A stretch of DNA of 64,000 bases from an uncultured Thermoplasmata archaeon. GTDB lineage: Archaea > Thermoplasmatota > Thermoplasmata > Lutacidiplasmatales > UBA184. The stretch lies in NCBI GenBank assembly GCA_963713145.1, contig CAVQKI010000005.1, positions 95,166-159,165 on the forward strand, in the 5' to 3' direction. Positions 1-51,148 of the stretch are shown piece after piece (positions within the stretch are counted from its first letter, which is position 1; every line of letters starts with the position of its first letter). The position numbers were made by a program, and so were the translations under genes. The notes below the pieces were generated by a model, which was not told the origin of the DNA, ran no database searches, and saw only the letters and a list, made by a program, of their open reading frames with translations.

Positions 1-2683
1 GTGCGTCGCGACTACCTTCAGCGTGGCCGCCGCCGTGAACGAGCCAGAGTACACCGCCGTGTGGATGTTGGGCGCAACGTAGGGGTAGTAGCCCCCGACG
101 ACGTTGAGCACGTAGGTGTAGGTGGTCCCGACCGTGACGTTGGTCCAGGTCATGCTCGAGGCCGTGGTCGAAGCCGTGCCCACACCGTCGACGGTCACGG
201 ACCAGCTGGTTCCAGCGTGCAGGCCCGACTCGGTGAACTTCACCGAGGCCGGTACGCCCACATCGTGGATCTGGAAGTAGGGTTGGTCCCCACCGCCGCC
301 GATCATTGGGTCGACGTTGATGGTCGCGTTGTTGATCCAGGGCGCCGCTGCTCCAACACCGTTAGCCTGGTCGAAGTAGGTGTAGAGACCGAGGGCGTTC
401 AGGATGTGCTCGATCAGGTTGTAGTCGAGAGTCCTCTGGGCTCCCGTCGGCAACCCGCCCGCGATGTTCATGTAGGCGACGGAGACGCCGTACGCAACAC
501 CCTGGCATTCCGAGGTCAGCTGGGCCTGGTGGGACCAGTAGATCAGGTTCGCGTAGGTGTCCGCCGAGTGTCCGCACGCGATCGCGTTGTCGTACGCCGG
601 CATCGAGAGCTGCTCGCCGACCGCGTCCGAGTAGGTGTAGGTCGCATCCGGCAGCGCCATCGGCGTGATGTAGTCCGTCGGGTCCGGATAGTCAGGCGCC
701 CAGCCCAGGTTCCAAATCGGGAACGGGTTGGAGTCCGGTGCCGCGAACAAGACGTCGATGATCAGATCCGTGAACGTCAGGTCGTTCTCATACGGATGAA
801 TCGCGCCGTTCGTGATGAGCACGACCGAGTTGATCCAGAGCTGGATGGCCGCATTCAGCGCGTCCGCGCCCTGCTCCCCGGCAATGGGGAACGCGCAGGT
901 CACGTTCTTGCACTGGGCCAGCTCGGGGTCGTGGTACGGGCTGTTCGTCACGTTCATCGCCTGGTTCGCCCACCAAGCCGCCCCACCGACATCCGCCGGG
1001 TTGAGGTCCGGGTTGGCGTTCGGGAACGAGACGTTCGTCGGGTAGTAGTTACCCATGTGCTGCGGGATCGGTCCGCCGGTGTTCACACCGAACTGGATTC
1101 CGTCCACGGTGTTGATCGAGCTCTCGACCGTCGCGTAAGGGTACGCATAGTCGAACAGCATCCGCGCCGAGTTCGAGCTGAAGAAGTCAGCCGGGATGTT
1201 GTAGGCGCCGGAGAATCCATCGCCAGTGTACGCCGTCGCGCTCGCGTTGAAGTCGTAGGGCCAGAAGAAGATGCTGAGCGTCGGCGAGTAGAACAGCCCG
1301 AGCTTGCCGTGGGACTGCTCGTTGAGGATCGTCCCCGTGTCCGCCTGCTCAAACCCACCTAGGTCGAGGTTACCGGCTTGGAACCCCGTAATCGTGGCCG
1401 AGTCGCCGCCCTGGTTACGTGACGTGGACCGTGCCCTGGTAAGAGCCCGGCGCCGGGTCACAGTATCCAGAGTAGATGGCGAGGCCGCTCAGGGCGTTGC
1501 AGCCGGACGGCTGGACGTAGTTGGGGTTGGAGAAGAGCGTGTAGCCGCTCGACAGGGTGATCGACCCCCAGTAGGGGCCGGATCCGACCATCTCCGCGTT
1601 GACGTTCGGCTGAACGACCGACGGGCCCGTCAGCGCGAGTTCCTCGAAGGAGTCCCACGTCGCCGAACCCAGAGGGGTGTGGTCCGACGTGAGGACCGCC
1701 TGGAATCCGCTCGCCTGTGTGTTGTTGACGTTGCCGGGCAGTTGGCAGGAGCCGTCGCCGTTCGCGGCAGCGGTACCGGGCCAGCCGGGGACCCCGGCCG
1801 ACTCGAAGGTGTACCATCCGCAGGGCACGACGCTGGCGCCCAGGTTGTCGCCGATCAACTGCAGGAAGAACGGCCAGTCTGTGCCCGAGCCGTTCGCGAC
1901 GAACGTGATGCATCCGTGCGCGTGGCTCATGGCGGTCGCCGGACAGTACGTTGAGTCGTTGATCAGGAACGACGAGAGCACGTCGAACGGTGTGTTGTTG
2001 AACGGCGCGTGGATCCCGGTTCAGTCGACCGGCAGTAGAGACTGGGCAAGGATCCAGCCGTTGTTGGCGCCGACACCGGGCAGGTCAGCGAACGCCATCG
2101 TCCGCGCGACGGAGAACGCGACATCGCTGGGGTAGACTCCCCAGTGGTTGCCGGTGTTGGGGTCAAAGAACTGCGCTGCCGGGTCGATCACGAACGTCCA
2201 GTAGATCGGCTGGCCGGAGACGTACCCCGTGAGGTTCGTCCCGTAGTCGGTCACGCACTGCTGAGTCCCGGGCACGCAGGTCGCGAGCGTCGGTACGAAC
2301 GTGGCGGTGTTCGACCCGTTGTAGTTGACCAAGGTTTGGTATACGTTCAAAATCGGCTCGTAACTCACGGTATCATAGGCCACCGCGGGGTCCACTGTAG
2401 TTGCTCCCCCCGGGGCAATGGTATAGACATCCAGCGTGCCCGGATGCGGGCTCGTTGGGATCGCTGGTGTTACGGTCGCCGTCGTCTGTACACTCGCAGC
2501 AGCGGGTACCGTCGCCGCCGACCCCGATGCCGCATGCGCCCCCGCCACAGCCAGCCCCGCGCTGACTGCCGGTAGCGCCATGCTCAGCACCATGATCACG
2601 GCTGCGGCAAGCACTGCTGTTCTCTTTCGATTCACGCTAATTTCGGACAAATCCCGATTCCTCCCAGTAGCTGGGCCACCCAA
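1..2683 (-). pseudogene. Substrate-binding protein of a family-5 (oligopeptide/dipeptide-type) ABC transporter with an N-terminal signal peptide. It is interrupted by an in-frame TGA at 2021-2023 and a frame change near 1415-1420. Its C-terminal part runs off the window start.
   Basis: ORFs 2021..2683 and 1415..1981 are in the same frame and are separated only by TGA. The N-terminus has a signal peptide (MGGPATGRNRDLSEISVNRKRTAVLAAAVIMVLSMALPAVSA). My hand translation of the minus strand from 1419 to 1 gives continuous family-5 SBP-like sequence (NQGGDSATITGFQAGNLDLGG...). Confidence 0.55.
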
Positions 2684-2701
2684 GTGCCCAAATGCCGGCC
2701 C

Positions 2702-2730
2702 CTATATGAAGCTTAAAAAAATCGAAAGGC
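2702..2730. promoter_or_regulatory. AT-rich TATA-like element (cctatatgaagcttaaaaaaatcg) in a GC-rich background. It lies just upstream of the minus-strand SBP gene start.
   Basis: Local AT island about 20-45 nt from the start codon at 2683. Archaeal TATA boxes sit about 25 nt upstream of the TSS. Confidence 0.35.
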
Positions 2731-3252
2731 AAGGACTGGGTCAGGCCCACCGGCGATGGCAGACCCGCTTGGGGCTCGGATTCGTGCGGGGCACGCGAAT
2801 CCGCCGCAGAGGGTCCGGAAACGGCCATCAAGACGCGTCCCGGGGGACTCAACCATCCACAGGATGGCAGAGGAGCTATACGTCACGCTCCGGATAGGCG
2901 GGCCGATTCTTACCACACATTGGTGCTAGGATCGTCCCTCTCGGGCCGCCGACTCCCGACGGAACACGCGGGGTCGGAACGCCGTTCAACTCGGTGCGAC
3001 TCCGGATCGAGGGCTCGGCGTCGCCTGGAAGGGCGATGGATGGATCGCCGCCCGCGTTCGCAACCGGAGATGAGAAGCCTGCCACCCTGCCCTGGGGACG
3101 ACAATCTGCTTTTCCCGGAATGCGAGCGGGGCCTGGCCTCAGCTTTCTTGGTACCATTAGAAGATTAGAAGTGTGTCGACCCGCGGGATCCCTGCTCCCC
3201 AGCGCCGTCGCCGCTCGGGAGGTCCACGGGCGGCATGGATCTCCAGATAGGG

Positions 3253-3359
3253 TGGTGCTCCCGGCGGGAGTCCCCCCAGTCGGACTTGCGCCGGCCGGCT
3301 TTGAACCCGCGTCAGAGGCTCGAGAGGCCTCTATCCTTGACCCACTAGACTACGGGAGC
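3253..3359 (-). tRNA. tRNA-Glu (anticodon CUC) with a roughly 30-nt intron in the T-loop (between positions 59 and 60). The 3' CCA is encoded.
   Basis: The minus strand folds as GCTCCCG-TA-GTCT-AGTGGGTCAA-GGAT-A-GAGGC-CTCTCGA-GCCTC-TGAC-GCGGG-TTCAAA[gccggccggcgcaagtccgactggggggac]T-CCCGC-CGGGAGC-A-CCA. All four stems pair and U8, U33, purine 37, G53 and C61 are present. The T-loop is TTCAAAT only after removing the insert. Confidence 0.75.
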
Positions 3360-3556
3360 GCCGATGCCCCGTAGCGGGCCCCCTCTTTGAGCGTTGCCCT
3401 CAACGCCGCCCGCCGACTGACATAACGGCGGTCCTCACGCCATGCGCCACCGGTTCGGTGCGATCGGCGGCGGACCCTTCCCCGCCAATCGTCGGGCAAG
3501 CCGCGAGCAGGGCCGCTCGGCGAAGAACCTATCTGCGGCGCCGCAGTCTTTGGCCC

Positions 3557-4013
3557 ATGAGCCCGCCCGTAAAGGCCCGCAGCGGCCACATCCTCCTCGA
3601 TCCCAAGCGGTCGTACCGGGACCTGGTACGCGTCTACCCCGACATCCACCGCCGTGTCGTCGAGATGAACCGACCGTTCGTGAAGGAGACGGACCCGCTG
3701 CTTCCCCAGGTGCTCCTGGACGAGAACCTGCGGGACCTGAAGGGCGGCCGCAAACCGGTCGGCTACAACCGGCCAGGACCCGTTCGGCCTCCGCCTGATC
3801 TTTCCGATCATGGACGAGCGCCGTGCGGAGTTCTACTTCGCGAAACCGTCGCGCTGCCAGGAGGTCGTGCAGATCACGGAGCACGTCTCCTCGCTGCTGC
3901 GCCGCCGGGGGATCAAGCACACCGTGGAGTACGACCGACTGCCGCTCGGCCCGGTCCGCGGGCTGCCGGGAATGCCGCCGCCGTCGACCGCGACCGCTTT
4001 CACGACGGCGTAG
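3557..4013 (+). CDS. Hypothetical protein of about 150 aa, with a +1 frame change near 3775-3790 joining the two ORF fragments.
   Basis: ATG at 3557 gives MSPPVKARSGHILLDPKRSYRDLVRVYPDIHRRVVEMNRPF... This continues in the next frame as ...DPFGLRLIFPIMDERRAEFYFAKPSRCQEVVQITEHVSSLLRRRGIKHTVEYDRLPLGP. Both parts have protein-like composition; no family recognised. Confidence 0.35.
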
Positions 4014-4033
4014 GGCCGGCCGTCAGGCGCCCG

Positions 4034-7000
4034 TCAGGGCGGCCGTCGGAACGGCCAGAGCGGGCTCGACGGCGGCATGGGCTGCGGGCCGTCGCCGGTC
4101 GCCACTCCGTCGCGCTGGAGCCGCTTCAGGGCCTCGCGAGCCTTCTCGAGCGCGGCGACATAATCGGTCTGGCGCAACGCCAGCGACTCCGCGAGGAGCC
4201 GACGGGCCTCGGTCGTATCGATCCGTCGCTGGTCCGCGCGGCCCAGGGCGGCGTCGATCAGGAAGTGGATGTTCGTGAGCTCGCGGTGGAGGGACTTCCG
4301 CAGGTTCAGCTCCTCCTCGGTCTTCATCAAGAGACGGGCGGCGTCCAGGAGCTTCCCCGAGCTCGCGAGCTCGTCCGACTCTTTCAGGCTCTCCTTCACG
4401 GGACCGACGGTCACGTGCAGCCCCTCCTCCGCGAACGTCACCTCCGACTGGAGCTCCTTGCGGCGTCGGGTGTACGGCGGCCGGACCGCGGCCTCGAGGA
4501 GGAGCATCGCCCGGTCGAGCGCCTTGGAGGCGTCCTCGAACCGGTTCGCGTCGAGCGCCCCCTTCGCCTCGATGAACGTCTGCATCACGGGGGTCGTGTC
4601 GAGACCGAGCCGCTCCCCGACCCAGAGGCGGTCGCGGAAACCCGCCATCGAGCGGCCCATCTCCTCCCGGCGACGCGCGCGCGTCTCCTCGAGCGTCGCG
4701 TCCAGGAGCTGCAGCGCGCCTCCGAGGTCGCGGCGTTCCTTGAACCGGTCGAGCTGGCCCCTGAGCTCGGCCCGCCGGACCCCGTCGCCGGCGGCCGAAC
4801 CGGCCGCCTTTCCTCCCTCGCTCTCGAGCCGGCGCCAGCGACCGTCGACGACCTCGTCGAACAAGCGACGGCTCGCCGCGTCCGCGCGGGCGAGGGACGT
4901 CCTCAGCCGTGCCCACGCGCCGCTCCTCAGCGCGGCCTCCGCCTCGGTGACGACCGCGTCCAGGGGCTCGACCTCGACCGTGAGACCGCCGGCGCGGCCC
5001 GCCTCGACCTCGCGGCGCAGTTCGCCCAGGGAAGCGGAGAACATCCTCTCGATCGACCACCGGCCCATCTCGGTCGCCTCGCGGGCGAGCTTCATCGCGG
5101 TCGGATAGTGGCCGGCCTTCTCCTCGCTGCGCGCCTCCGCCAGGCGCGCTGACGCTTCGCGCGCTTCCGCGCCCAGCGACGCAGCCTCGCCCACCTGGCG
5201 TTCCGCCGCCGCCATCGTCTCGCGGGCACGACGGTGCCCGTCCCGCGCGGCTTCGATCAGCTCGGAAACGCTGAACGCGAGCTCGAGGGCGCCCGGATAA
5301 TCCTCGCGCGAGAACGAGCGCCTGCCCGGCGCGCAGCGCGTCCGCAGCCTCCGGCGTGACGGTTCCCTCGTCGCGGGCGCGGGCGAGCGCGTGCTCGGCG
5401 GCCTCGATCGACCCTTCGGCGATCCGCCGCTGGAGGTCGACGCGCTCGAGCTCGGTCTCGCTGCGGGCAGCGAACTGGACGGCCTCGATCGGCTTCCCTT
5501 CGTCGAGCGCCATCCGCGCCTGGTGAAGGAGGTTCTCCGCCACCGAGGTGTTCCCGCCCGTCCGGCGCAGCTGGGTGACCGCGGCCTGGAATCCGGCCAG
5601 CGTCTTCGAGACGTGCTGGAAGGTCGCCTGGATCAGCTCCCGCTCGACCGTCCCACCGAGGTCGACCACGCGGGCGTACTCACGGGCCGCGAGCAGGCGC
5701 TCGATCTCCTCGACCTTCGGCCGAAGCACCCCGAGGTCGGTCCGGAGCAGCTCCGCCTGGGCGATCGCGTCACGGACCCGTCGCGCGACGCGTTCGGCCT
5801 GCTCGACGAACCCGCGCGTGGAAAGAAGGGCGGAGCGGACCTCGTCGAGCAGGGCCGCGGCGCCGGTCGGCACGGGGAGGGCGATCCGCCGACGCGCCTC
5901 CGCGAGCGCCGGAAGGATCGGGTCGAGAGGTACCCGGCCGCACGTCCCACGTCCAGGTCCCGCTCGAGCGACCTCAGGTTCTCCTCGAGGACCGGCCGTA
6001 GAACGTTGACGAGCTCCTCGTGGAGGAGCCGAACCCCCTCCCGGGTCGCTGCCGGCGGTGCGGTCGCGCGCTCGGTCTTCAGCTGTTCCGCGCGAGCCTC
6101 GAACGGCTCCATCGGCACCGAGAGCCGACGTCCCTCCTCGAACAGCAGCGACAGCTCCTGGAGGCGGCGCTCCGCGTCGGCCCGGGCCTCCTCCGCGACC
6201 AGCTGCTCCTCGAGGGCGTCGAGCCGCAGCCGCGCTCGGTCGAACTCCAGGGCCCGGAACGCCGCCCGCGCCTCGGCGAGCGCCTCCTCTACGGTCGGGC
6301 CCTCGGCGGGATGGGCGGTGGCCCGGCCCGCGAGCTCCTCGATCTGGGAGAATCGGGACAGCACGTTCTGCGCCGCGGCGCGGTTCCGCAGCGCGTTCTC
6401 CTCGAGGCGGGTCGCCGAGCGGTACGCGTCGAGGTGCCGACCCTCCTTCGCGTCCGTCTGCGCCTTCTCGAGCTCCGCGCGGAAGGCCGAGAGGTCGAGG
6501 CCGGTGGTCTCGAGCTCGACCAGTGAGAGCTTCGCGTGCGACACCGCCTCCTCGCTTCGGAGCAGCTGCTGCTGCTGGGCACGGGTCCGGATCTCCTGGG
6601 ACGCCCGCGACGCCTTGACGAAGTCGCCCATGTTGAAGATCTGCTGGACCTCGTCGATCTGCCGCTGGATCTCGTCGCCCGCCCCGCCCATCGATTCGAG
6701 CACGCGACCCTCGGCCTCGAGCGCCTCTACCAGCGCGGAGGCGTGGGCCGCGAAGACGGCCGCGAACTCCCGTTCGGCCCGGTAGAGGCTGTCGACCGAG
6801 CCGACCAGGTCCTGCTTGACGCGCAGCGTCACGTCGGCGTCCGCGAGCAGTCGGCGCACGGGCTCGGTCAACGCTTCGTCCGGGATGTCCGTGAACCCGC
6901 GCTCCATCTCCTCCACGCGGCGCGCGACGAACGGTCCGGCGGCGGTCCTCACCTCGGCCTCGAACCGGGCGATCTTTTCCGCCGCCTCGGCCAGGTCCCC

Positions 7001-8584
7001 CCGGTCGAGGGCGGCCTTCGCGTCGGCGAGGCCCCGCTCGGATCCGGCCGGCAGGAACCCCCGCTCGCCGGCGAGCTTCCCCACGCGTTCGAGAGAGTTC
7101 CACCGCTCGACGAGGGAGGCGACCGCCTCCTTGCCCAGCTGGCGAACGGTATCGCGGAGCGTCTCGGCCGCGGGGCCGACCTCCGCCCGCTTGATCTGTT
7201 CGCGGATCTTGTGGACCGCCGGCTCGAACGCGGCCGTGGGGAATCCCGCGTCGCGGAACCGACCGAGCATCTCCTCGAGGCCCGCGAGCTCGTTGCCCGA
7301 GGCGTCCAGGTCCTCGGTGAGCCGGCTGACCCGGTCGAGGGCCTCCTGGGCCGCGGCCAGCGCCTCGGAGTAGATCTTGAGACGCAGCGCCTCGCGCGCG
7401 CGGTTCATCGCGACGAAGACGTCCGTCGTGTCGCGGCCGAGGCGCCGCGCGCCGGCGATGCGGGGTCGCACTTCGTCGAGCAGCCCCGCGACGACCGTCA
7501 CGATCGGCTCCTCCGCGCTCCGCGCGGCCTCTGCGAGGATCGGGCCGATCTCGGCGGGGCCGGCGGTCGGCAGCCTCGCGAGCGCCTCTTCCACGGCCGC
7601 CCGAGCGGGCGCGGGGTCGACGCCGAAGTCGGAGAGGCCAACGAGCGACCCGCGGAGCGACTCGAGCGCCTGGGTGCAGCGGGAGCGCAATCCCTCGCCG
7701 GCCTCCTTCGAGGCCGCCTCGATCGCGGCGAGGGTGTCGGGCCATCCCTCGGGGCCCCGGTCTGCCTCCTCCTTGATCGCGAGGTCGAGGGCGCCGGTCG
7801 GGGCTCCCAACTGCTCGGCGGTCGTGCGGAGCTCCTGGGCCGCCCGTCGCACGGCTTGGCTACGCTTGGCGGCTTCGGGGAGGCCCTCGGCGATCTGGCG
7901 TCGGATCGAATCGAGGGCGGCCACGAGCCGATCGTCCGTGGAGGCGTCCTCCGCCGAGGGGAGCTTATGCTCGAAGTCGGCGAGCCGGTCGCCGGTGGCA
8001 CCGGAAAGTCGGGCGAGATCGACCGCTCGGGCCCGGGACTTCTCGAGCCGGTCGGCCGCGGCCGCCCGGATCTGTTCGTCGACCGCGGCGAGGCGGCCGA
8101 CGAACTCGGCCCAGGCCGATTCCGGGGCGGGCTGGGCGAGCGCCGAGAGCTCCGCGGAAAGGGCCGGGGAGATCGGGACGCCCATCACGATCAGGCGGCG
8201 GACGGACTCCTCCGTCCGACGCCGCCGGTTCTCGAGGGTCGCAGGAACGGTCTTTCCGAGGGATTCGAGGAGGGCGCGCGCCTGAATGTCGAGCTGCTCC
8301 CAGTCGGTGCGGCGGTAGAGGTCGCGGAGCTGCTGCTGCTTCTCGGCCAGCCCGGCGGGCGCGATGCCGAGGCTCTCGAGCGAACCGATCCGCTCGTCGA
8401 CCTCCTTCATGGCCGCTTCCGCGACCTGGCGCTTCTTGCGGAGCGCTTCCGCCTTCTCTTGGAGAATTCGGGTCAGCCGAGATGAGGAGAGCGGCCCGAC
8501 GCCTCCCGGGACCGGACGTGCGTCTCCCCCCTCAGCCGGAACCCCCCGACCTGCCGGTTGGGGGAAGTCGGGCAGGGCTTTCAT
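4034..8584 (-). CDS. Very large (about 1500 aa) all-alpha coiled-coil protein of unknown function. Two compensating frame changes (about 5940 and about 5300) split it in the ORF track.
   Basis: ORF 5633..8584 reads MKALPDFPQ... and turns to junk after ...LERDLDVGR. Real sequence continues in the frame of ORF 4023..7745 (RVPLDPILPALAEARRRIALPV...ALRAGQALVLA). It then returns to the first frame (FSREDYPGALELAFSVSELIEAARDGHRRARETMAAAERQ... = ORF 4034..5215). No Walker motifs seen. Confidence 0.55.
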
Positions 8585-8657
8585 GCCCCGCCTTCCTTAT
8601 TAATGGAACGCGGCCGACGCGCGCTCGCCGCCGGGACGAAACGATCACGCCCGCCGT

Positions 8658-9047
8658 TCAGGCCCGGGTGATGCGTCGCCGGCCCATCGCATCGATGTAC
8701 TGGACCTCGCCGCCGGGCGCGAGCTGGCCCTTGCTCTCGGCATCGATCGGAAGGCTGAACGTCTCGTACGTCTCGAGGTCCATCAACTGGACCTCCGCCT
8801 CGGTGAGCGAGAGGACCTGGGCGTTCTTCTTCCCGATCACGGGGATCTGGACCTTGTGCTTCACGGGGAAGACGACGCTTCGCTTCGACCCGTCGAAGAC
8901 CCCGATGGCGTCGATCCGCGCCTTCGCTTCCCCGTGCTTCCCGGGCTTCGAAGTTTGGATGCTGATGATGCGGCAGGGCTCCTCCTCGATCAGGATGTAC
9001 CGGCCTTCCTTCAGCTCCCGGACCTCGGCTTGCTGCGTCCAGGCCAT
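8658..9047 (-). CDS. Translation initiation factor 5A (aIF-5A), hypusine-containing.
   Basis: [56 protein letters not shown]... carries the STSKTGKHG-type hypusine loop (TSKPGKHG). Length is about 129 aa. Confidence 0.85.
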
Positions 9048-9190
9048 CGAAACTCTCTCCGAGGGTCCGAGCATCGCCGGACCGTCATAAGGGTTGCCAC
9101 GCAGGCCCCTCGAGGTCGATTCCCTCCGCACGAGGGTTTATTCCCGCCCCGGTCCCATCGCGACGCTAGGGGAGCCCCTCTTCGAGAACC

Positions 9191-12112
9191 ATGACCGACG
9201 CGCGGCCGCCGCCCACCCCGAAGCAGGTGGAACTGGAATCGCGACGACTCTGGGCGTCGCGCCAGGTCCCGGCGGCCGATGGATCGCTCGGTCCGGAGAA
9301 CGGTCCGCTGCTCCGGCAGTTCCTCGGCACGTTCGCTCCTGGCGACTCGCCGGCCCTGGTCGCGCACCGGGCGGTCTCGGCAGACGTGGACGCGCGTTAC
9401 CTCTCGCTCTCGGGACGGCGGGTTCTCGGAACTCTCCGACGCGAAGGCTGGCCGGTCGAGGAACTCGACCCCAACGTCCACGCGCTCCTGGTCGCGCTGG
9501 GAGTATGGACCGGAGGGACGCGCGGAAGGCCGTGGGAAGCGGCCGACTGGCACGCCGGCGTCCAGGGGATGATCTCTCGCCTCGCCCAGCGCGGGGTCCT
9601 TGTCGTGCGCGACGGGCCGCTGCGCGTCTGCACGACGTGCGCCGCGCCCCGGAGCCCCGAGCGGATCATCTACCAGCAGGAGCTCGGCGATGCGTACCTC
9701 GTGCGTTTCCCGCTGCGCGGGTCCGACCCGCCGGTCGATGCGCTCGCCTGGGTGGACGCCCCCTGGCGGCTCCTGGCGACGAGCGCGCTCCTCGTCAACC
9801 CCGAGGTCACCTACGCCATCGCCGACTACGTGCGGAAGGACGCGAGCGTGAGGCTCCTCACGGCACGTTCGTCGCTCGACCGGCTGAAGACATGGCTTCC
9901 GGGCTCCACCCTCACCCTCGTCGAGGAGCACGCCGGCCGCGAGCTCGTCGGCCGACCGTATGCCTACCCGCTGCGGCACGAGTTCCCGATCGGCGGCGAC
10001 CTCGCTCCTCCAGCCGGAACCATCCAAGCGGTCGCGGACGTCGGCGATAGCGGGACCGGGATCGTTCCCCTGATCCCCGGGCACGGCGGAACGGACGCCC
10101 AGATCGCGGAGAGGCTGGGTATCTCCGGGTGGCCGCTCCTGACGCCGCACGGCCAGCTCGACCCGACGCTGATGCACCAGTACCTCCGGGCTCGACGTCG
10201 AAACCGCGAACGAGTTCGTCGCTCGCGACCTGACGGAGAGCGGAGCCGTGCTGGCGAGGCTCCGCGTCCTTCGTGGGGTGCCCTACTGCGCCGTCTGCGG
10301 CCATCCCCTCGTGTGGATGCCGGGGCGCGCGTGGTGCCTTGAGATCAAGAACCTGCCGGCCGAGGAGATCAATCGGTACGCCCGGCTCCTTCCTGGCGAC
10401 CGTCCGATCGGCCAGATCGAGGTGACCCCGTGGCCGGTCAGCGCGACGGTCTCCTCCGTCTCTCCCGCCGCGATCTCGCTGCTCGAATGCGGGCGGTGCG
10501 AGCGACTGGACGCCCCCGAGGCACCCCTCAAATGCCCGTGCGGCGGAAACCGCCGCCTCGTCTCGCGCCGGCTCCTGCCCTCGATCGCGGGCACCTTCTC
10601 GGCGTGGGCCCGGAACGAGCCGGTTTCGCCGGCGGATTCGGTGCGGGTCTACTCCAACGAGCGCCGCCGGGCAGCCACGCTCGTCCACCATCTCGCGGCG
10701 ATGGCCGGGGTGCGCGGGGCAGTGGCGGATGTGGGCCTGACCCTTGTCCCGACCGTGGGCGGTATCGACATCGGCGGGCTGATCGACGCCCACGGGGCCG
10801 ACGCGGTCCGGGCGGCGTTCGTGCGCGCCGAGGTCAGCGAGGGTGCCTCCGGGACGTTCCCCGAACGCTGCCGGCAAGAGGCCGCCCGCCTGGCGCGGCT
10901 CCGAGCCCTCGCGGCCGACGTGCTCGCCCGATGCGGCGGGCCGGGCCGCGCGGCGGAGCTGAGCGAGCCGACGGTAGCCTCCGACCGGGAGCTCGAGCCG
11001 GAGGACCGGGCGATCCTCGCCCGCTGGGCCCGGGCGAGGCTTCTCGTCATCGCCGAGTACACTCGCTGGAATCCCGCGGGCGCCCAGCGGCACATCTACC
11101 GGTTCGTCGGAGGAGAGCTCGAGGAGTACCGGTCGTTCGTTCACCCTCGCCTCGAGCTCGCGGACATGCCGACGAGCAAGCGGGCGGCCCTGCGTACCCT
11201 CGCCCATGTCCTCCGTTCCTGCGCGGTGGTCCTCGCGCCGATCGCGCCATTCACGGCCGAATCGATCCACCGGACCCTCGTCGTGGAGACGCTCAGCCTG
11301 TTCGAGCGGTCGGACCTGAGCTCGGACTCGGCGGCGGACGAGAGGCTCGCGGTCGCCTGGGACCGGTGGCACGACGTTGTCGCGGCGACCGACCGGTTCC
11401 GAAGGGACCGCCACCTCGCACCCACGACCGTCCTCCCTTCCGCGGTCCTGGTCATCGCGAACGACGCCGACGCAGAGCGCCTGCGCGGCGACAGCGCCGT
11501 GATCGAGAAGCTCGCCCGAGTGGCTCGCCTTGAGGTCGGCAGTCCCGGGTCGCCGTGGGCGGGCCACCGGCGACGCCTGGTCGCGGTGGAGAGCGAGATC
11601 CAGCGAGTCTACCCCTCGCTCGCCCGTCCCATCATCCATCTCATCAACCGTCTCCCTCCCCGGCGCCGGAGAGGACGCGAAGTCCGAGGAGCTCTCGGTC
11701 GTGGTCCAGGGCCAGCCGCGGCTCATCACGCCCGCGATGGTGACGACGGTCGACGTGCTGCCGGAGCGGACGGTCCCGGTGCCGTTCGCCCTGGGCGAGA
11801 TGTACTTGGAGGCGCCCGCCGCCAGCCCGGACACCCGGCCCGCCCCCCCACCGCTCTCCCCGGATGCGTTCTGGCTCCTCCGCCGTGTCGACCGCGCCCT
11901 CCGCCGGAACCCGGCGCAGGCCGGCGCGGAGACCCGCCGCGCCGCCGTGGCCGTAGCGGTCGACCCGCTCGCGACCGAGTTGAAGGACAATGCGACGACG
12001 ATCGCCCGCTACCTAGGGTTGGCCGAACTGCGCGTGATCGACCGATCGGAAGAAGCACCACCCCACGGAAGGATCACCGGCCGCACCCGCACGGGAGCCC
12101 CTTGGTGGGTGA
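9191..12112 (+). CDS. Class Ia (Ile/Val/Leu-type) aminoacyl-tRNA synthetase paralogue with degenerate catalytic motifs. Frame changes lie near 10250 and 11660 and the C-terminal boundary is uncertain.
   Basis: CP1/editing-region homology: LRVCTTCAAPRSPERIIYQQELGDAYLVRFPL, DSGTGIVPLIPGHGGTDAQIAERLGIS. Anticodon-binding-domain homology: LRSCAVVLAPIAPFTAESIHRTL. The HIGH position reads PGDSPALVAH and the KMSKS position reads TVGGIDIGG followed by the conserved GADAVRAAF. The three frames were joined by hand. Confidence 0.55.
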
Positions 12113-12208
12113 GCGTTCCGGGACTCTCCCGGACGACACGGCCCGCGAAGCACCGGCGGGCGCGCGCCCGCCCGGAGGATCCCGCTCCCTGTCGCGTCCG
12201 ACTCCGAA

Positions 12209-14243
12209 ATGGGGGAGGTCGACTACGCCGACGACGCCGTGGTCGCCCACGGCGAGGCTGTCCGCAACCTGGGCCAGGAACTCGACGGCCTTCTCGCTGC
12301 CCCGCTGCTGGGGCCGTCCAAGGTAGCGATCGCATGGGACGCGGGTCTGCGGTCGGTCCAGCAGTTCACCGACGCGCCCTTCGACACGCTTGTGGCCATC
12401 CCCGGTTTCGGCAGGGCCATCGCTTCCACGCTGTACGCCCATCTCGGAAAGCCGGTTCCACGCCCGCCACCGCTCGCTCGCACCCGCTCGCGGCCACCGA
12501 GGACGTCCTCCTCAGAATCGACCGTGACGATGCCGGTGGCGGCACCTCCGCTGCCCGGCTCGGCCGAGCGATCCGCACCGCCCGCACCGGCGCGTGCGGA
12601 GAGGCGTGCGATCATCGTGGCGCCTCCCGTCGTCCCCGCCCCGGTCGAACCGCCCGCGGTACTCGCGGTCATACCGCCGGCAGAGGTCGTGGTCGTCCCC
12701 ATTCCCGAGCAGCTCCCGACCCCCGCGATCGAACCGGAGGGCCCACCGACGGAGGCTATCGCGCCGCCGAGCGAGACGGTCGAACCGACACCGGAGGTTC
12801 CGGCCTCGGCGTCTCCGCCCTCCCCCGCGACGGACGCGCCCGAACCCGGTCAGGTCACCGGAAGCGTTGCCCCCACCGCAGTTCCCGAGCTCTCGGTGTC
12901 GCCGACGGAAACAGCCGCGCGGGAAGACGGTCCTCCCGCCGGCATGGTTCCTGGGCAGATTCGGGAGGAGCTCGGTCTGCCGGTCGCCGCGCCCGACGTG
13001 CCTGCTGCCGGGGCCGCGATCGAGGGCGGTGATACCGCCGCTGAATCCAACGCGCCGGCTGAGGAGACCGAGCCGGAGGCACCCGCTTCCGTGCCTGACG
13101 CGTCGTTCGCACCAGAAGAGTCGATGGTCGCCTCCGGGCCGGCGGCCACCGAGCCCGCGCTGGCGGGAGCTGCCATGACCGCCCCGGAAGCCGACTCAAC
13201 AGTCGTCGGCAGCGATACGGAAGAGTTGCCCGCACCGGAAGAGACGGCTGCTGGCCCCGGGCCGGCCATCGCTGAATCCGCGCCGACAGCGGCTGCGACA
13301 ACCGTCCCGGAGACCGAACCCAAGACAGAAGGTGGCGATACCGAGGTTCCGCCCGCACCGGAAGAGGCGATCGTCGCCCCCGGGCCAGCCGAAGCTGAGC
13401 CCGCGCCGGCCGTGGCCGCGATGAGCATCCCGGAGCCAGAGACAGGAGGCGAAGCCCACGACACCGACGTTACGCAGGCACCCGAGGCGCGGATCGCGAC
13501 CCCCGGGCCGGCCGTCGCCGAGCCCGCTCCGGCGGCCGCGGCGATGGCCGCCCCGGAACCTGAGCCGGAGGTCGGGGACGGCGACACTGGGGTCGAGCCG
13601 GCACCCCCTGCTCTCGAGATGGCCGGCACGGGGGAGGTGGCTCCCGCTCCAACGCCGGAGCCAGAGGCACCGGAACCCGCGCCGTCGGTTCCCGTTGTTG
13701 AGCAACTCCCGTCGGAAGCTCCTCACGCGCCTACGCCGGAGCCCGTCCCACCGCCGCCCCCGACGGGCCTCGAGGTCGACCTCTCGGAGTCGCTTCTCCC
13801 CGCCCTGCAACCGTTCCTCGAGGAGACCGGGGCGGGTCACCACGGCCTGGCGATCGTCCGAGAGATGCCGGAACGGATCCGGGCTCATGTCGGGCCGAGG
13901 CCGGTCGTCGTCTACTGGCTCACGAACCTGGTCCGCGACCGGACGATCAAGCCGAACGACCTCAACGCGGTCGCGGAACGATTCACCAAGGCACTGGACT
14001 CGGAGAGCGTGACCGCGGTCTTCTTTGAAGGGGTCGAGTACCCTGGTACACATCCACGGGATCGACCGGATCGTCGAACTCCTCCAGAGCATGGATGGCC
14101 GTCTCAGGGCCCACGAGGCTCGCGGGTGGCTCCACCTCTCGCCCAGCCTGATACCCGAGTCGGACGTGGGACGGATCCTCACCGGGCTCGGACGAACGCG
14201 CTCCGGGGCCGCCGACCCGGGCGCACCGGCCCCCTCTGGATGA
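12209..14243 (+). CDS. DUF835-domain protein with an N-terminal helix-hairpin-helix motif and a roughly 450-aa Pro/Ala/Glu-rich low-complexity linker. A frame change lies near 14040.
   Basis: HhH-like LVAIPGFGRAIASTLYAHLG. Long PAPEPE acidic region. C-terminal DUF835-like pattern VVVYWLTNLVRDRTIKPNDLNAVAERFTKALDSESVTAVFFEGVEY / LVHIHGIDRIVELLQSMDGRLRAHEARGWLHLSPSLIPE, split over ORFs 12209..14317 and 14025..14243. Confidence 0.55.
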
Positions 14244-14313
14244 GGGCATGGGCCGGCGGAGTGTCCGCCGGAGAAGGCTTATCTCGGTCTATGGATGGGT
14301 CGGACCGGCACCG

Positions 14314-15100
14314 ATGAGGGAGCAGCGTGGGATCCGGTTCGGCCGGCGGACCGCCCACCTCGCTCTCGCCGCGTCCCTCACGCTGCTCCTTCTCCTCCCC
14401 GCGTCCGCGATCGGGGACCACGTTGGTCTCTCGGCGACTCCCAAATCCGTCTCCGTAATCCCGGCAGCTTCCGCCGGACCGTTCGACGCGGAAGTCTTCT
14501 GGAACGGCGCGAACGCCGCCTCCGCGAACTCCGCTTCGTCCGCGTTCACCTACACCTCGGGAGAGACCGCGAACGCCACGTTCCACTTCAACGGAACATC
14601 CCTCGTCGTTCCGCCCCCGTCCATCACGAACGCGAGCCTCACGCTCACGTACTTCGGGATCGCGCTGACGACGAACACCGGCCCGTTCCACTCGATCGGC
14701 GGGAGCGCTTCCGAGGCGAGGATAAACTGGTCGTTCGGCCCCCTGGTTCAGCTCACCGAAGGCGTGTACCAGCTGAGCGCGAAGATCACCAACACGACCG
14801 GGGCCACGATCTGGAGCGAGTCGTTCTACATCCACGTGAAGGCTCCGTACCTCTATCGAATCCGGCCTCGTCGTGTTCCTGATCATCCTTTCGCTGGCCG
14901 AGATCTACTGGATCGCCGCCTCGATCCGGGGGGCTCGGGGGAGGAAACCCAAGTTCGCTCAGGTCAAGGGCAGTGAAACCGGAGGGGATTCCGAGGCAGC
15001 CACGACCCCGATCACCGAGGGGTCCGCCCCCGGCGGCACGCCGCCGTCGACAGGACCTGGAACGCCCCCCACGCAGCCACCGGCGGGAGGTGCGCCGTGA
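14314..15100 (+). CDS. Secreted or surface protein with an N-terminal signal peptide, N-glycosylation sequons and a C-terminal TM anchor followed by a basic tail. A frame change lies near 14850.
   Basis: MREQRGIRFGRRTAHLALAASLTLLLLLPASAIG is a signal peptide. NATF/NGTS/NASL/NTTG are sequons. In the next frame the C-terminus reads GLVVFLIILSLAEIYWIAASIRGARGRKPK..PGGTPPSTGPGTPPTQPP. Confidence 0.45.
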
Positions 15101-15288
15101 GCGACACCACCAGCGCCGGAGGCTCGGGGGCCGTGCTTCTGATCGCGATCGTCATCCTCCTGCAACAGTTCGGGTACCTGCCGCTCACCGACTTCCTCAC
15201 GAGCATCGTGCTTCTCCTGGTCGCGGGTATCGCCGGCGGGATCGTGTTCGGCCTCATCGCCTGGGCTGTCGGTCGCAGACACCACTGA
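15097..15288 (+). CDS. Small (63 aa) two-helix membrane protein. Its start overlaps the stop of the upstream gene (GTGA).
   Basis: MSDTTSAGGSGAVLLIAIVILLQQFGYLPLTDFLTSIVLLLVAGIAGGIVFGLIAWAVG. Translational coupling with 14314..15100. Confidence 0.45.
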   Translation: MSDTTSAGGSGAVLLIAIVILLQQFGYLPLTDFLTSIVLLLVAGIAGGIVFGLIAWAVGRRHH

Positions 15289-15434
15289 ACCTCCTGCGCC
15301 GGGGGCGTTGGAGGGCCGTTTGGAGGTCCGGAAGGCCTTGAGTGAGTGGATCTGACGTTTCCGTCCGATGGCCGCAGTGTCCGCATCGCCCTACCTCCGT
15401 GGTCCGGTGCGGATCTCTAAGCGCGCCCCGCTGC

Positions 15435-16634
15435 TCAGCGCGCTGCCCAGCTTCGGCCCTCCGGGGCCGCTCCACCCCCTTCATCCGGGAGCGCTCGAGA
15501 CCGTCGTCCACGACCAGGTCGGCGTCGCGTGGCGGGTCCCCAGCCTCCGGCCAATCCGGCCGCGCCCGGCGGGGGCCCGCCCGGTTCGGGAGCATACGCG
15601 CGCCGCAGCCGGAAGAAGAACACCAGGACGATCGCGAGGAGCGGGAGCGTGACCGGGATCGGGAGCGTGATGAGGAAGCCGAAGATCGCGAGGAAGAGCA
15701 CAAACCCGAACGCAAGGTCGACGAGAAGTCGTTCGTTGCCGACCGTGCCGATCCCGCGTCGCACGACCTCGAGCAGGACCGCGAAGATCGCCACCTCGAC
15801 CGCGATCAGGACGGCCGGGGGGACTCGCGTCGACGTGAACCCGTACTCGAGGGCGAAGGCGATCGGGAAGAACGCGAACCCGACCGCGCCGACCTGCCAA
15901 CCCCGCAGGGTGGGGTGGCTGTTCCGAGGGGTCCAGAGCCGGACGGGCGCCCGGTACGCCGCCAGCACGAGAAGAGCGATCGTGATCGACGCTCCCGCCA
16001 GCAGCGGCCAGCCCATCCAGAAGTGGAACGCGGAAGCGACCAGCACGGTCTCGCTGAGGGTAGCGCCGGCCAGGGCGACCAGCGCAAGGACGATCCCACG
16101 CCGACCGAGGAGGGAACGACCCCGGGTTGCCGGGATCGCAAGGCCGAGGAGGAGGATGGGAAGCCCCACCGAGAAGATCACATGGTACGCGAGGACCCCG
16201 GTCGACCAGACCCAGTTGACGCCCGCGTAGCGGCCGAACCAACCGAGGACGCCATCCGCCCCGTGGCTCGAGTTGAAGAGCGTGTTGTCGCCCAGGCCCT
16301 CTTCCGTGATCCCGTAGGCGAGGCCCAACAGGAAGACCGTCCCCCACCCTTTCTTCCATCGGATCACCGCTTCCCGGACCAGCAGGGCACCCGCCGTGTA
16401 CTGACCGACGTTGATCGCGATCTGGAGGAAGAAGAACACCGGACTGCTCGCGAGCGTGAGGAACGAGCTGGACGAGGCGACGTACTCGGGGATGCCGGGC
16501 GTGAGCAAGGCGAAGCAGACGATCGGGTGGGACCGGAGGGTATCGAGCCACCGCGGCCGGCGCCGGGGCGACGCGCGTTTCAAGGGCGGCGGCGCGTCCG
16601 CCGACTCGGCGGGCTCGGTCGGGAGCGACCCCAC
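15435..16634 (-). CDS. Polytopic integral membrane protein of unknown function. The R/P-rich C-terminal approximately 45 aa may be read-through.
   Basis: At least eight hydrophobic helices (FALLTPGIPEYV..., VFLLGLAYGITEEGLG, VLAYHVIFSVGLPILLLGLAI, LVLAAYRAPV...). The antisense 585-aa D/E/R-rich ORF 15342..17099 is an artefact of this gene. Confidence 0.5.
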   Translation of the reverse strand: MGSLPTEPAESADAPPPLKRASPRRRPRWLDTLRSHPIVCFALLTPGIPEYVASSSSFLTLASSPVFFFLQIAINVGQYTAGALLVREAVIRWKKGWGTVFLLGLAYGITEEGLGDNTLFNSSHGADGVLGWFGRYAGVNWVWSTGVLAYHVIFSVGLPILLLGLAIPATRGRSLLGRRGIVLALVALAGATLSETVLVASAFHFWMGWPLLAGASITIALLVLAAYRAPVRLWTPRNSHPTLRGWQVGAVGFAFFPIAFALEYGFTSTRVPPAVLIAVEVAIFAVLLEVVRRGIGTVGNERLLVDLAFGFVLFLAIFGFLITLPIPVTLPLLAIVLVFFFRLRRAYAPEPGGPPPGAAGLAGGWGPATRRRPGRGRRSRALPDEGGGAAPEGRSWAAR

Positions 16635-16767
16635 GACCGCTCGATGGCCGGTAGGTCTACTTCAACATGGTTCCCCGGTCCGGCCCGCGCGCGGGACCTC
16701 GTCCCCCGCGCCGTCCTGGCGAGCCTGGCCACGGTCGCTTTCGTGCTGGCGGTGGCTGTTCCGCAAG

Positions 16768-18107
16768 CTAGAGCTCGGGCCGGTCCAGTAGCTTCGGGGG
16801 TCCGGCGCGGACCCGCCGGTCACCCGCGTCCCCTGGCTCCCACGCTCGCAGGCCCTGCTCCCGCGGGCGGCCCCCGCCGCCCGGAGGCGTGGGCGTTCGC
16901 GAGATCACCCAGTAGAGGAGCGCAACGGCGAACGCGAGAATCACCCCGAACAGAACGCCGGCGCTCGTCAAGCCGATCTGCTGGGACGCTTCGGCCACGC
17001 CGATGGTTGGGACGGCGAGCGCGAGGTACCCTGCGAGGTAGAAGCCGGCGAGCATCTCGCCGCGCGCGTCCTCGGGCGCGACCCGGTCCACGAGCGTGAC
17101 GCTGCCCATGAACGTGAGACCCACCGCGGCGCCCAGGGCCGCCGTCACGATCACGACGAGCTCCCAGGCGGTCAGCGGAAGGATCAGTACCGAGGGCCAC
17201 GAGCGTGCCGATCATGAGCGGGAATCCGACCAGTAAGGCCCGACGATCGCGGATCTGGGAGGTCCCGAGCTGGGCGATCGCCGCCGTCCCGAACATCAAC
17301 GCCACGACCGCCGCGGCCGCGAGGGGGCTCGAGATACGGAGCCCGCCGCGGACGTACGACGGAATGAGCGCGGCGAAGAAGCCGTAGATCGAGTAGCACG
17401 CCGCGATCCCACCGACCGCAACCCAGAACGGCCGCCGAACTCCCACCGGAACGGAGACGCGCTGGACGTGGAAGCCGGGGCGCGAGTGGATCGCGGACGC
17501 CGTTTCGGGCGTGGCGGCGATCGCCAGAACGCCGACCAGGCTCGCGACGACCGGAAGCAGGTAGACGAGCCGCGTTGGGTCCGGAGCGTACCTCGGCCAG
17601 GAAGCCGCTGAGCGTCGCCCCGATGGCGAACCCGCCGAAGTTAGCGGCCACCGCGACCCGCGCGACGTGATGCTGGTCGCGGTACGGCTCCAGGTCGCTC
17701 ATCGCGGCGGTGGCGACGCTCGTCGTCGCCCCGACCGCGAAGCCGGCGATGAACCTCGCGAGCGCCAGCCAGAGCACGTCCGTGGCGGACTCGAAGACGA
17801 TGGCGGCGAGAATCGTGAACGCCATGCCCACGTAGAGCAGGTTCCTCCGACCCAGCTGCTCGGCGTGTGGGGCGACGAAGAAGAGCGTCAGGAAGACGCC
17901 CGGAGTGTACGCCGCGAACGCCAGCCCCAACACTCCCGCGGAGAAGTGGAGACGCTGCTCATAGAGCGGGTAGAGCGGTGTCGGAATGGCCGCCGCGAAC
18001 GACGTGGCGGCGAGCGTGTACGCGGTCCAGCGAAACGCTCCTCGAGGTCCGTGGATCATCAGGCGCTGGATCCCAGACGCGTTCGGGGGATCGGGTGCGT
18101 CGGTCAC
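16768..18107 (-). CDS. MFS-type transporter split into three fragments by frame changes (about 17160 and about 17440).
   Basis: Fragments 17184..18107, 16820..17446 and 16768..17154 are all multi-TM, collinear, with MFS-like helices (LGLAFAAYTPGVFLTLFFV..., FIAGFAVGATTSVATAAMSDLEP). Confidence 0.55.
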
Positions 18108-51125: not shown

Positions 51126-51148
51126 TCTCCTACCGGCTCGTTTTCTCG

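Follow-up and report, generated by a model that had tools for sequence, protein, structure and literature searches.

Synthetase-derived proteins with other duties provide the natural frame for the gene that we describe here, which occupies positions 9191-14243 (+) of a 64,000-nucleotide stretch of DNA (the window) from an uncultured Thermoplasmata archaeon (contig CAVQKI010000005.1 of assembly GCA_963713145.1) and encodes what appears to be an inactive derivative of isoleucyl-tRNA synthetase (IleRS) fused to a KaiC-like domain. In the eIF2-alpha kinase GCN2, a HisRS-like domain, itself a dead derivative of a synthetase, is fused to a signalling module and binds uncharged tRNA. LeuRS-I of the Sulfolobaceae is a retained archaeal class Ia paralogue that cannot aminoacylate (Weitzel et al. 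2020, via the review PMC9437257); it binds tRNA and has an altered CP1 domain as well as an unusual, acidic C-terminus (PMC9437257). On the signalling side, DUF835 serves as an output domain in response regulators of archaea (Methanomicrobia and Thermoplasmata) according to Galperin et al. 2018 (PMC5847659), who regard it as an inactivated KaiC ('iKaiC') and connect it with a proposed KaiC signalling hub.

The protein considered here resembles each of these in part. Once the frames of the gene are corrected, its domain order is an IleRS-derived pseudo-synthetase, a helix-hairpin-helix (HhH) domain, an acidic tether and DUF835. With canonical type 2 IleRS (8c8v, 8c9d, 8wnd; 1ile) it shares the fold over the whole length (Foldseek E-values of 2e-45 to 1e-29), CP1, both Cys4 zinc clusters, Anticodon_1, the C-terminal tRNA-binding region, GADA(L/V)R and GTG..HG..D, whereas the family to which it belongs lacks signatures of the HIGH, KMSKS, DQxRGW or WCISRQ type, has the Thr-rich peptide and the His of the editing site replaced, stands at 14-19% identity and carries some 700 extra C-terminal residues. 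LeuRS-I differs in that it still makes leucyl-adenylate (its synthetic site is intact), is of the Leu type and is fused to neither an HhH nor a KaiC-like domain. In GCN2, the HisRS-like domain is of class II origin, eukaryotic and coupled to a protein kinase as output, so that the likeness is a functional analogy without homology. Response regulators with DUF835 also carry PF05763 at the C-terminus, occur in Methanomicrobia and Thermoplasmata and are predicted to take part in KaiC-centred signalling (PMC5847659), but have a receiver or PAS input where the present protein has a dead IleRS. Fusions of IleRS, HhH and DUF835 from Thermoplasmatota (P0198, P0191, P0224; P0229, which is MBA3046026.1; P0240, which is MCK4757139.1) come from the same phylum and have the same domain order, DUF5915 included. 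They are the best matches outside the family to the hidden Markov model (HMM) of the family, even when its tail is left out, and are annotated either as 'isoleucine--tRNA ligase' or as 'class I tRNA ligase family protein'; several of them, unlike the family, keep a strong tRNA-synt_1 match and the motifs.

An IleRS body without class I signatures

A relationship with class Ia synthetases had been proposed in an earlier note, made from the sequence of the window alone, and every peptide quoted there occurs in the corrected translation (PALVAH, aa 54-59; RVCTTCAAP, 145-153; DSGTGIVPLIPGHGG, 286-300; GGIDIGG, 523-529; GADAVRAAF, 535-543; LAPIAPFTAE, 681-690). The relationship is real, and it is specifically one with IleRS. 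When a profile of 22 family sequences was compared with the PDB, P. megaterium IleRS2 (5e-37) and T. thermophilus IleRS (2.5e-29) scored well ahead of ValRS (9e-14), LeuRS (1.5e-10) and MetRS (5e-4), the aligned stretches being CP1 and the anticodon-binding domain. For the intact homologue P0007 (1,094 aa), a structure modelled by AlphaFold2 (AF2) from an alignment of 58 sequences (mean predicted local distance difference test score (pLDDT) 86.4, predicted template modelling score 0.76) gave the same ranking in Foldseek, with full-length IleRS2 at 2e-45 over ~1,100 columns (8c9d, and 8c8v with the C-terminal tRNA-binding domain resolved), yeast IleRS at 9e-36 (tRNA complexes ~1e-35), ValRS at 2e-26 and LeuRS at 6e-21. 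Since IleRS ranks first by both scores, we rejected ancestry from ValRS or LeuRS. The NCBIfam model ileS (TIGR00392) also matches at 6e-14, in two pieces of 51.1 and 45.6 bits as against a cutoff of 621.4; Anticodon_1 reaches 41 bits in the Pfam scan (cutoff 25.1), and tRNA-synt_1 gives no match at E<0.1 in the pieces or at E<0.01 in the corrected protein. The cysteines of both zinc clusters (C147, C150, C366, C369, C433, C436, C448 and C450), which are predicted metal sites, are invariant in the 22 sequences. The alignment with synthetases along the whole length, as the earlier note had it, holds for the fold; at the level of sequence, significant similarity is confined to CP1 and the anticodon-binding domain. 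Together these comparisons show that the family descends from IleRS and keeps the full architecture of the type 2 enzyme over its first ~980 aa.

What this body lacks is the machinery by which class I enzymes are recognised. Across 57 family sequences the HIGH slot reads x-L-V-A followed by Q (23), H (16), L (5) or another residue, so that neither His is conserved, and the KMSKS slot reads L-T-(V/L)-(L/V)-P, without a Lys. We fixed the latter by the ungapped register between GADAVR and 'LDPxDLIxxYGADALR' of IleRS, and against the fused relative P0198; GGIDIGG, previously taken to stand in place of KMSKS, lies just downstream of the slot and aligns with 'GNVVDPEE' of IleRS. Other core elements are unrecognisable, DQxRGW being replaced by an invariant N/x-E-R-R-R (RRR at aa 491-493). 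Stand-alone archaeal IleRS recovered in the same search have H-[ILV]-G-T and KMSKS. Correcting the frames does not restore HIGH or KMSKS, which are missing in the closest short-read copy (L004) and in the 57 family members, and an indel artefact as the source of the loss was rejected on the ground that intact homologues have no motifs either. Because the family is a conserved paralogue without the class I signature motifs, aminoacylation would seem very unlikely; the degeneracy from which the earlier note drew this conclusion for the one sequence survives frame correction and extends to all 57 members.

Since the signature motifs are wholly absent in all members, we infer that a separate IleRS must exist in the genomes that bear the family. 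Stand-alone canonical IleRS are found in metagenome-assembled genomes (MAGs) of Thermoplasmata, at two loci with MoeA-IleRS-Thg1 synteny and 63-66% GC (L041, L045) and in a soil MAG of the SMAG project at 66.5% GC (L042). The 64-kb window and the fetched flanks of related loci (~0.6 Mb) contain no canonical IleRS. In another Thermoplasmata MAG of 50% GC (L043:1-3316, JBHIEU010000106.1), an open reading frame (ORF) ending in DUF5915 is followed 270 nt on, on the same strand, by a canonical IleRS, which suggests tandem IleRS-like genes there.

A remodelled and highly constrained CP1 pocket

Post-transfer editing by IleRS needs residues of the Thr-rich peptide and the pocket His, and the conserved editing Asp anchors the amino group of the substrate. 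In the family, W-V-D-A-P-W-(R/K) stands in place of WTTTPWT, both W and the D being present in 57/57 sequences and P in 49, and GTGxVHxAPxHGxxD has become G-T-G-(I/V)-V-P-L-V-P-G-H-G-x-T-D, with Pro for the pocket His in 53/57. The GTG...HG..D block is nevertheless kept, T289, G290, H298, G299 and D302 in 57/57 sequences and G288 in 56/57. Of the editing region that was earlier regarded as retained, the block and its Asp are indeed there, whereas the Thr-rich peptide and the His are replaced in essentially all of the 57 members.

The pocket lies in the most constrained part of the protein. Comparing the window with L004, the ratio of non-synonymous to synonymous change (dN/dS) is lowest in the CP1-like domain (0.019) and the second half of the Rossmann core (0.05), intermediate in HhH (0.11), the anticodon-binding domain (0.115) and the C-terminal domain (0.13), and highest in DUF835 (0.18), the first Rossmann half (0.21) and the tether (0.43). 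In an alignment of 55 sequences, 30% of CP1 columns are near-invariant, against 8-15% elsewhere. The editing pocket, in other words, has been remodelled yet is very strongly conserved.

A fusion to a helix-hairpin-helix and an inactivated KaiC-like domain

The gene had been taken to end at 12112. It runs to 14243, adding HhH, a long linker and DUF835, so that the synthetase-like body on which the earlier note was based, and beyond which it missed the fusion, makes up only the N-terminal 60% of the protein. HHH_5 scores below its cutoff on the window protein (19-24 bits against 27); PF14520 is recorded for many family members, the related fusions have a strong HHH_5 match, and AF2 places helices at 1012-1081 in a block of pLDDT ~84-93. 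The tether of ~440 aa consists to 73% of Pro, Ala, Glu, Thr and Val, has a net charge of -57 and varies from ~100 to ~600 aa among homologues. DUF835 matches the corrected protein at 4.7e-13 (49.5 bits, cutoff 33.1; 38.8 bits on the frameshifted ORF) and has a RecA/KaiC-like fold. Within aa 1526-1682 there is no Walker A motif GxxxxGK[ST], the loop after strand 1 reading SESL.

At two related loci (L020:11667-13091, L024:9389-10660) the ORF runs ~285-330 aa past DUF835, and an extra C-terminal module is possible in some lineages.

One gene, four assembly indels

The coding signal from the ATG at 9191 to 14243 corresponds to a single gene of 1,682 aa once its frames are corrected. As presented in the window, it is read in frame 2 to ~10180, frame 0 to ~11660, frame 1 to ~12160, frame 2 to ~14040 and then frame 0. 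Periodicity of GC content at third codon positions tracks these shifted frames, and coding periodicity continues across the breaks. There are four of these, at 10183, ~11662, ~12156 and 14041, where two (near 10250 and 11660) had been noticed before and their origin in sequencing noise had been missed. We corrected the second and third by deleting one base, which is equivalent in frame to adding two, so that the product may be one residue short per site. Without the extra C at 14041, the Pfam match to DUF835 grows from profile positions 19-87 to 19-121.

Two comparisons bear on the nature of the breaks. One is with L001 (ENA ERZ25039509), in essence the same organism, which aligns to window positions 1-16812 at 99.6% identity. 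Over these 16.8 kb the two differ by 31 indel events and 36 substitutions, spread over all genes; indels in the gene are as dense as the disagreement between both assemblies across the window, ~1 per 0.5 kb. L001 reads MHQYSGLDVETAN at the first break, without the extra C of the window, is likewise out of frame at ~11662, by a different length, and carries frameshifts of its own elsewhere (for example after ARNEPV in P0002). The other comparison is with L004, whose product P0009 (1,646 aa, 94% identical in the synthetase-like part, with Anticodon_1 and DUF835) is encoded by an intact ORF. Non-triplet gaps between window and L004 are exactly +1 at 10183, -2 at ~11662, -2 at ~12156 and +1 at 14041, and all remaining gaps are multiples of three. 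More broadly, all five parts of the protein share one frame in every short-read MAG, at least 18 complete short-read copies are uninterrupted ORFs of 1,400-1,930 aa, and frame switches are confined to long-read MAGs of the Microflora Danica project. An apparent stop in one of the other loci (L003) falls in an out-of-frame stretch.

Because L004 is intact, the short-read MAGs have the gene in one ORF and the window and L001 disagree at different places, we judge the four indels to be errors of noisy long-read assembly and not biology. The comparisons show one functional gene at 9191-14243 (+), broken only by these four indels. Programmed frameshifting was rejected in view of the single ORFs in short-read MAGs, the gaps relative to L004, the assembly noise and dN/dS, as was a separate downstream DUF835 gene, in view of the one ORF in all short-read MAGs.

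A family of soil and peat Thermoplasmata with graded relatives

Scanning one genome per GTDB species, we found 35 loci, all in soil or peat MAGs labelled 'Thermoplasmata archaeon' (projects SMAG, JOPF, SPRUCE and Microflora Danica). Of 166 proteins matched by the profile in a database of 5.8 billion, the best 120 all belong to the family; among these 120, full-length members measure 1,340-1,714 aa and nearly all carry Anticodon_1 (plus HHH_5) and DUF835, and named hits are every one Thermoplasmata. Their database labels are 'class I tRNA ligase family protein' or 'DUF835 domain-containing protein'. In a HMMER search of 1.84 billion representatives, ~80 belonged to the family (E<1e-30; lowest identity 33%), after which there was a sharp drop. 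These searches show that the family occurs only in Thermoplasmata of high GC content from soil and peat.

Below the family, at 22-31% identity over CP1, come ordinary IleRS together with proteins of 1,230-2,330 aa. All six of the long proteins scanned against Pfam have tRNA-synt_1, Anticodon_1, DUF5915, HHH_5 and DUF835, BLAST finds a DUF835-like tail in another six, and the named fusions are all from Thermoplasmatota. P0198 and P0191 have H[IV]GT, PMSKS and WTTTPWT, with tRNA-synt_1 matches up to 4e-133 (P0198, which has HIGT), and to judge by such motifs some of the fusions look enzymatically competent and may be enzymes still. Others, as assessed by crude motif patterns and inspection, lack one, two or all motifs (P0236, P0229, P0200, P0209, P0219, P0240), and in P0200, P0209, P0219 and P0240 the crude patterns find none. 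In all four fusions for which a crude pattern picked up a KMSKS-like motif, its first Lys is replaced (P0191, PMSKS; P0198, PMSKS; P0224, RMSKS; P0236, PMSKT), whereas stand-alone IleRS found by the same pattern mostly have KMSKS; the replacement may be a sign that the fusions are paralogues whose kinetics have changed and not housekeeping enzymes.

Against the family HMM without its tail, fused proteins reach 187-260 bits in their IleRS part, as compared with 88-189 bits for stand-alone IleRS. Because the HMM favours the fused over the stand-alone proteins and the fusion itself is shared, the family probably descends from an IleRS-HhH-DUF835 fusion and would be the most degenerate tier of that class. 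We judged relationships by HMM scores and the shared fusion and not by a tree, as long-branch artefacts are expected to dominate a distance tree. In the searchable literature, where DUF835 is mentioned only by Galperin et al. 2018, we found no description of an IleRS-DUF835 fusion, though Makarova et al. 2017 (mBio, on KaiC) may mention it.

Two stand-alone IleRS-like proteins of 961-1,046 aa from MAGs of Anaerolineales (Chloroflexota), P0247 and P0235, carry the label 'class I tRNA ligase family protein' and seem to be without HIGH, KMSKS and the Thr-rich editing peptide (for example LVWSDAAWKLPGA); they may be an independent bacterial pseudo-IleRS family.

Genomic neighbourhood

The window is archaeal and of ~70% G+C. 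In every locus with enough flank, sister contigs included, the gene order is constant: a 151-aa protein (+), a coiled-coil protein of ~1,460 aa (-), aIF5A (-; 8658-9047 in the window), the pseudo-IleRS gene (+) and often a membrane protein of 236-262 aa (+). Some 143 bp (window 9048-9190) separate the divergent aIF5A and pseudo-IleRS genes, an arrangement kept in all related loci, and a single bidirectional promoter region may serve both. The coiled-coil-like protein (window 4034-8596 (-); L039:4844-9220), which is rich in Ala, Glu, Arg and Leu, has no Pfam match and is 39-79% identical between loci, lies beside aIF5A and the pseudo-IleRS gene at all related loci, with the conserved 151-aa protein beyond it. 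Given the noise of the window, many of its genes are probably split by false frameshifts, as in the case of the coiled-coil gene, which is seen as 4034-5632 plus 5633-8596 (-). Further along, the 1,067-aa product of an ORF at 48749-51952 (+) has a HerA/DUF87/TrwB-like P-loop NTPase region at aa ~275-610 and, at its C-terminus, a KaiC domain (PF06745, 5e-55); it is a candidate member of the KaiC network, which DUF835 domains are proposed to contact, and the fusion of NTPase and KaiC could itself be a frameshift artefact. Features of the pseudo-IleRS gene are collected in Table 1.

Table 1. Coordinates of the pseudo-IleRS gene and its parts in the window; residue numbers refer to the corrected protein.
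Feature	Position	Strand	Basis or remark
Whole gene	9191..14243	+	Stitched translation; comparison with L004 ORF
N-terminal half of Rossmann core, aa 1-130	9191..9580	+	AF2/Foldseek fold match
HIGH slot, reads PALVAH (LVAH for HIGH)	9350-9367	+	HMMER alignment to 1ile HVGH
CP1 (editing-domain-like) insertion, aa 131-385	9581..10346	+	Best sequence match is IleRS CP1
Zinc cluster 1 cysteines (predicted)	9629-9640 and 10287-10298	+	In CP1
Thr-rich slot, WVDAPWR	9749-9769	+	In CP1
GTGIVPLIPGHGGTD	10052-10096	+	In CP1, GTG..P.HG..D block
First frame break (assembly error), an extra C that shifts frame 2 to 0	10183..10183	+	Absent in L001 and L004; GC3 frame switch
CP2/CP3 and C-terminal half of Rossmann core, aa 386-535	10347..10796	+	
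Zinc cluster 2 (CGRC...CPC; predicted)	10488-10541	+	In CP2/CP3
KMSKS slot, reads LTLVP, aa 516-520	10737-10751	+	Aligned with IleRS2 and P0198 by the GADAVR / LDPxDLI register
Anticodon-binding domain, Pfam Anticodon_1, aa 605-746	11004..11429	+	Pfam 2e-10; aligns to IleRS2 residues 599-852
C-terminal IleRS type-2-like tRNA-binding region, aa 747-980	11430..12132	+	Foldseek alignment; relatives carry Pfam DUF5915 here
Second frame break (assembly error), a CCCCGGCGCCGG run short of 2 nt, which shifts frame 0 to 1	11658..11668 (~11662)	+	L004 comparison; P0004 and P0005 in frame through site
Third frame break (assembly error), a GC-rich run coding the basic linker and short of 2 nt, which shifts frame 1 to 2	12156..12175	+	L004; P0004 in frame through site
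Helix-hairpin-helix domain, aa 1033-1085, preceded by basic linker	12290..12448	+	Subthreshold HHH_5; AF2 helices
Pro/Ala/Glu/Thr-rich acidic tether, aa 1086-1525, probably disordered	12449..13768	+	Composition
C-terminal DUF835 (PF05763; inactivated KaiC-like, 'iKaiC')	13769..14243; Pfam match aa 1548-1650 = 13835-14144	+	
Fourth frame break (assembly error), an extra C within DUF835 that shifts frame 2 to 0	14041..14041	+	Absent in L001 and L004

What might a dead synthetase do?

The fusion to HhH and the KaiC-like DUF835 suggests a regulatory or adaptor role. The explanation that we favour, tentatively and with somewhat less than even confidence, is that the protein is a non-catalytic sensor of tRNA(Ile), or of its aminoacyl end, wired to KaiC-type signalling. 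A synthetase-shaped body that does not aminoacylate would serve as a recognition module for tRNA(Ile); alternatively, the ligand might be the aminoacyl 3' end of the tRNA, held in the constrained CP1 pocket with its Asp that would anchor the amino group. Through DUF835, occupancy would be linked to the network of KaiC-type signalling in archaea or else to homo-oligomerisation, in a mode broadly like that of the HisRS-like domain of GCN2. A wider proposition, which we think unlikely though worth stating, is that IleRS bodies fused through HhH and a flexible tether to iKaiC, from apparently active to dead, form an undescribed signalling class of Thermoplasmatota, in which the dead ones sense the charging of tRNA(Ile), or an aminoacyl 3' end held by CP1, and feed the KaiC hub.

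Several points weigh against the sensor model and the reconstruction behind it. The model draws solely on domain architecture and analogy. It is just as conceivable that the constrained CP1 pocket, with its invariant D189, R/K193, H298 and D302, serves as a new catalytic site. Synteny with aIF5A may reflect inheritance within one lineage and not functional linkage, because all loci belong to one lineage, and the gene for a KaiC-family ATPase in the window is 34 kb away from the pseudo-IleRS gene and unlinked to it. The samples and records to which a search with a high-GC IleRS query led (ERZ25039495, ERZ25039489, ERZ25039519, DASQGG01 and JBHIEU01) correspond to none of the identified assemblies that bear the family. 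Finally, the breaks at ~11662 and ~12156 are out of frame in L001 too, so that there the diagnosis of an artefact rests on L004 and other homologues.

How do other explanations fare? Imagine that tRNA plays no part: the protein might then be a sensor of a small molecule (a branched-chain amino acid or a nucleotide, say), a new enzyme or a structural adaptor, with DUF835 as its oligomerisation or output module. Such a role would sit well with the disappearance of all adenylate-site signatures, the invariant RRR in place of DQxRGW and the invariant pocket loops; synthetase-like proteins with non-translational chemistry are well known (reviewed in PMC9437257), and DUF835 is an output module in response regulators (PMC5847659). 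However, a pure small-molecule sensor would have no need of the complete tRNA-binding architecture that has been kept under purifying selection (dN/dS 0.12-0.13). We hold a role of this kind to be a good deal less than an even prospect, while regarding a non-tRNA ligand or a new catalytic activity of CP1 as a serious alternative. The option preferred in the earlier note, a free-standing editing or other hydrolytic factor whose CP1 deacylates mischarged or particular aminoacyl-tRNAs in trans while the dead site and the anticodon-binding domain position the tRNA, draws on the exceptional constraint on CP1, the invariant Asp of GTG...HG..D and the retention of the anticodon-binding and C-terminal tRNA-binding regions. 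Yet the changes from WTTTPWT to WVDAPWR and from the pocket His to Pro affect essentially all members, and editing in trans leaves the fusion to HhH, tether and iKaiC unexplained. The note had offered a trans-editing or a regulatory factor; family-wide changes in the pocket weaken the former, which we now consider improbable, while the fusion points towards the latter, as a regulatory or adaptor role.

Two more conventional explanations are hardly credible. Class I enzymes do tolerate some variation in their motifs, as the archaeal H[ILV]GT and the P/RMSKS of the fused relatives illustrate, and one might suppose that the protein is simply the working IleRS of the organism, in unorthodox guise. 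If that were so, we would not expect the family to be without a conserved His at either HIGH position and without a Lys in the KMSKS slot, nor tRNA-synt_1 to be undetectable and ileS to score 51 bits against 621; moreover, canonical stand-alone IleRS do occur in Thermoplasmata MAGs, high-GC soil ones included. Nor does a decaying pseudogene with real frameshifts, which four frame breaks in 5 kb might suggest (two of them common, in net frame, to L001), agree with an indel density equal to the disagreement between assemblies across the window, with coding periodicity that persists, with an intact L004 at 94% identity and at least 18 other complete intact copies, or with strong purifying selection. 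With folded domains at dN/dS ~0.02-0.2, indels that match assembly noise and an L004 free of them, we rejected decay.

Implications

Dead synthetase paralogues are already known, few of them with an assigned role; what sets this family apart is the KaiC-like fusion and the series of graded relatives. It amounts to a natural IleRS shell, in which both active-site signatures are lost while the tRNA-binding architecture and an extremely constrained CP1 pocket are kept. There is a practical side to this as well, in that some proteins of the family type are mislabelled, even as 'isoleucine--tRNA ligase', and in long-read MAGs the gene is split into several false genes. The relatives, which grade from canonical-looking to dead, are useful for reconstructing how an essential enzyme turns into a regulator, and the physical fusion to a domain of the proposed KaiC network makes for a concrete, testable hypothesis. 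If the sensor model is true, the family would be an archaeal equivalent, of class I and of independent origin, to the HisRS-like sensor of GCN2, and as such it bears on how archaea sense the status of their amino acids or the charging of their tRNA.

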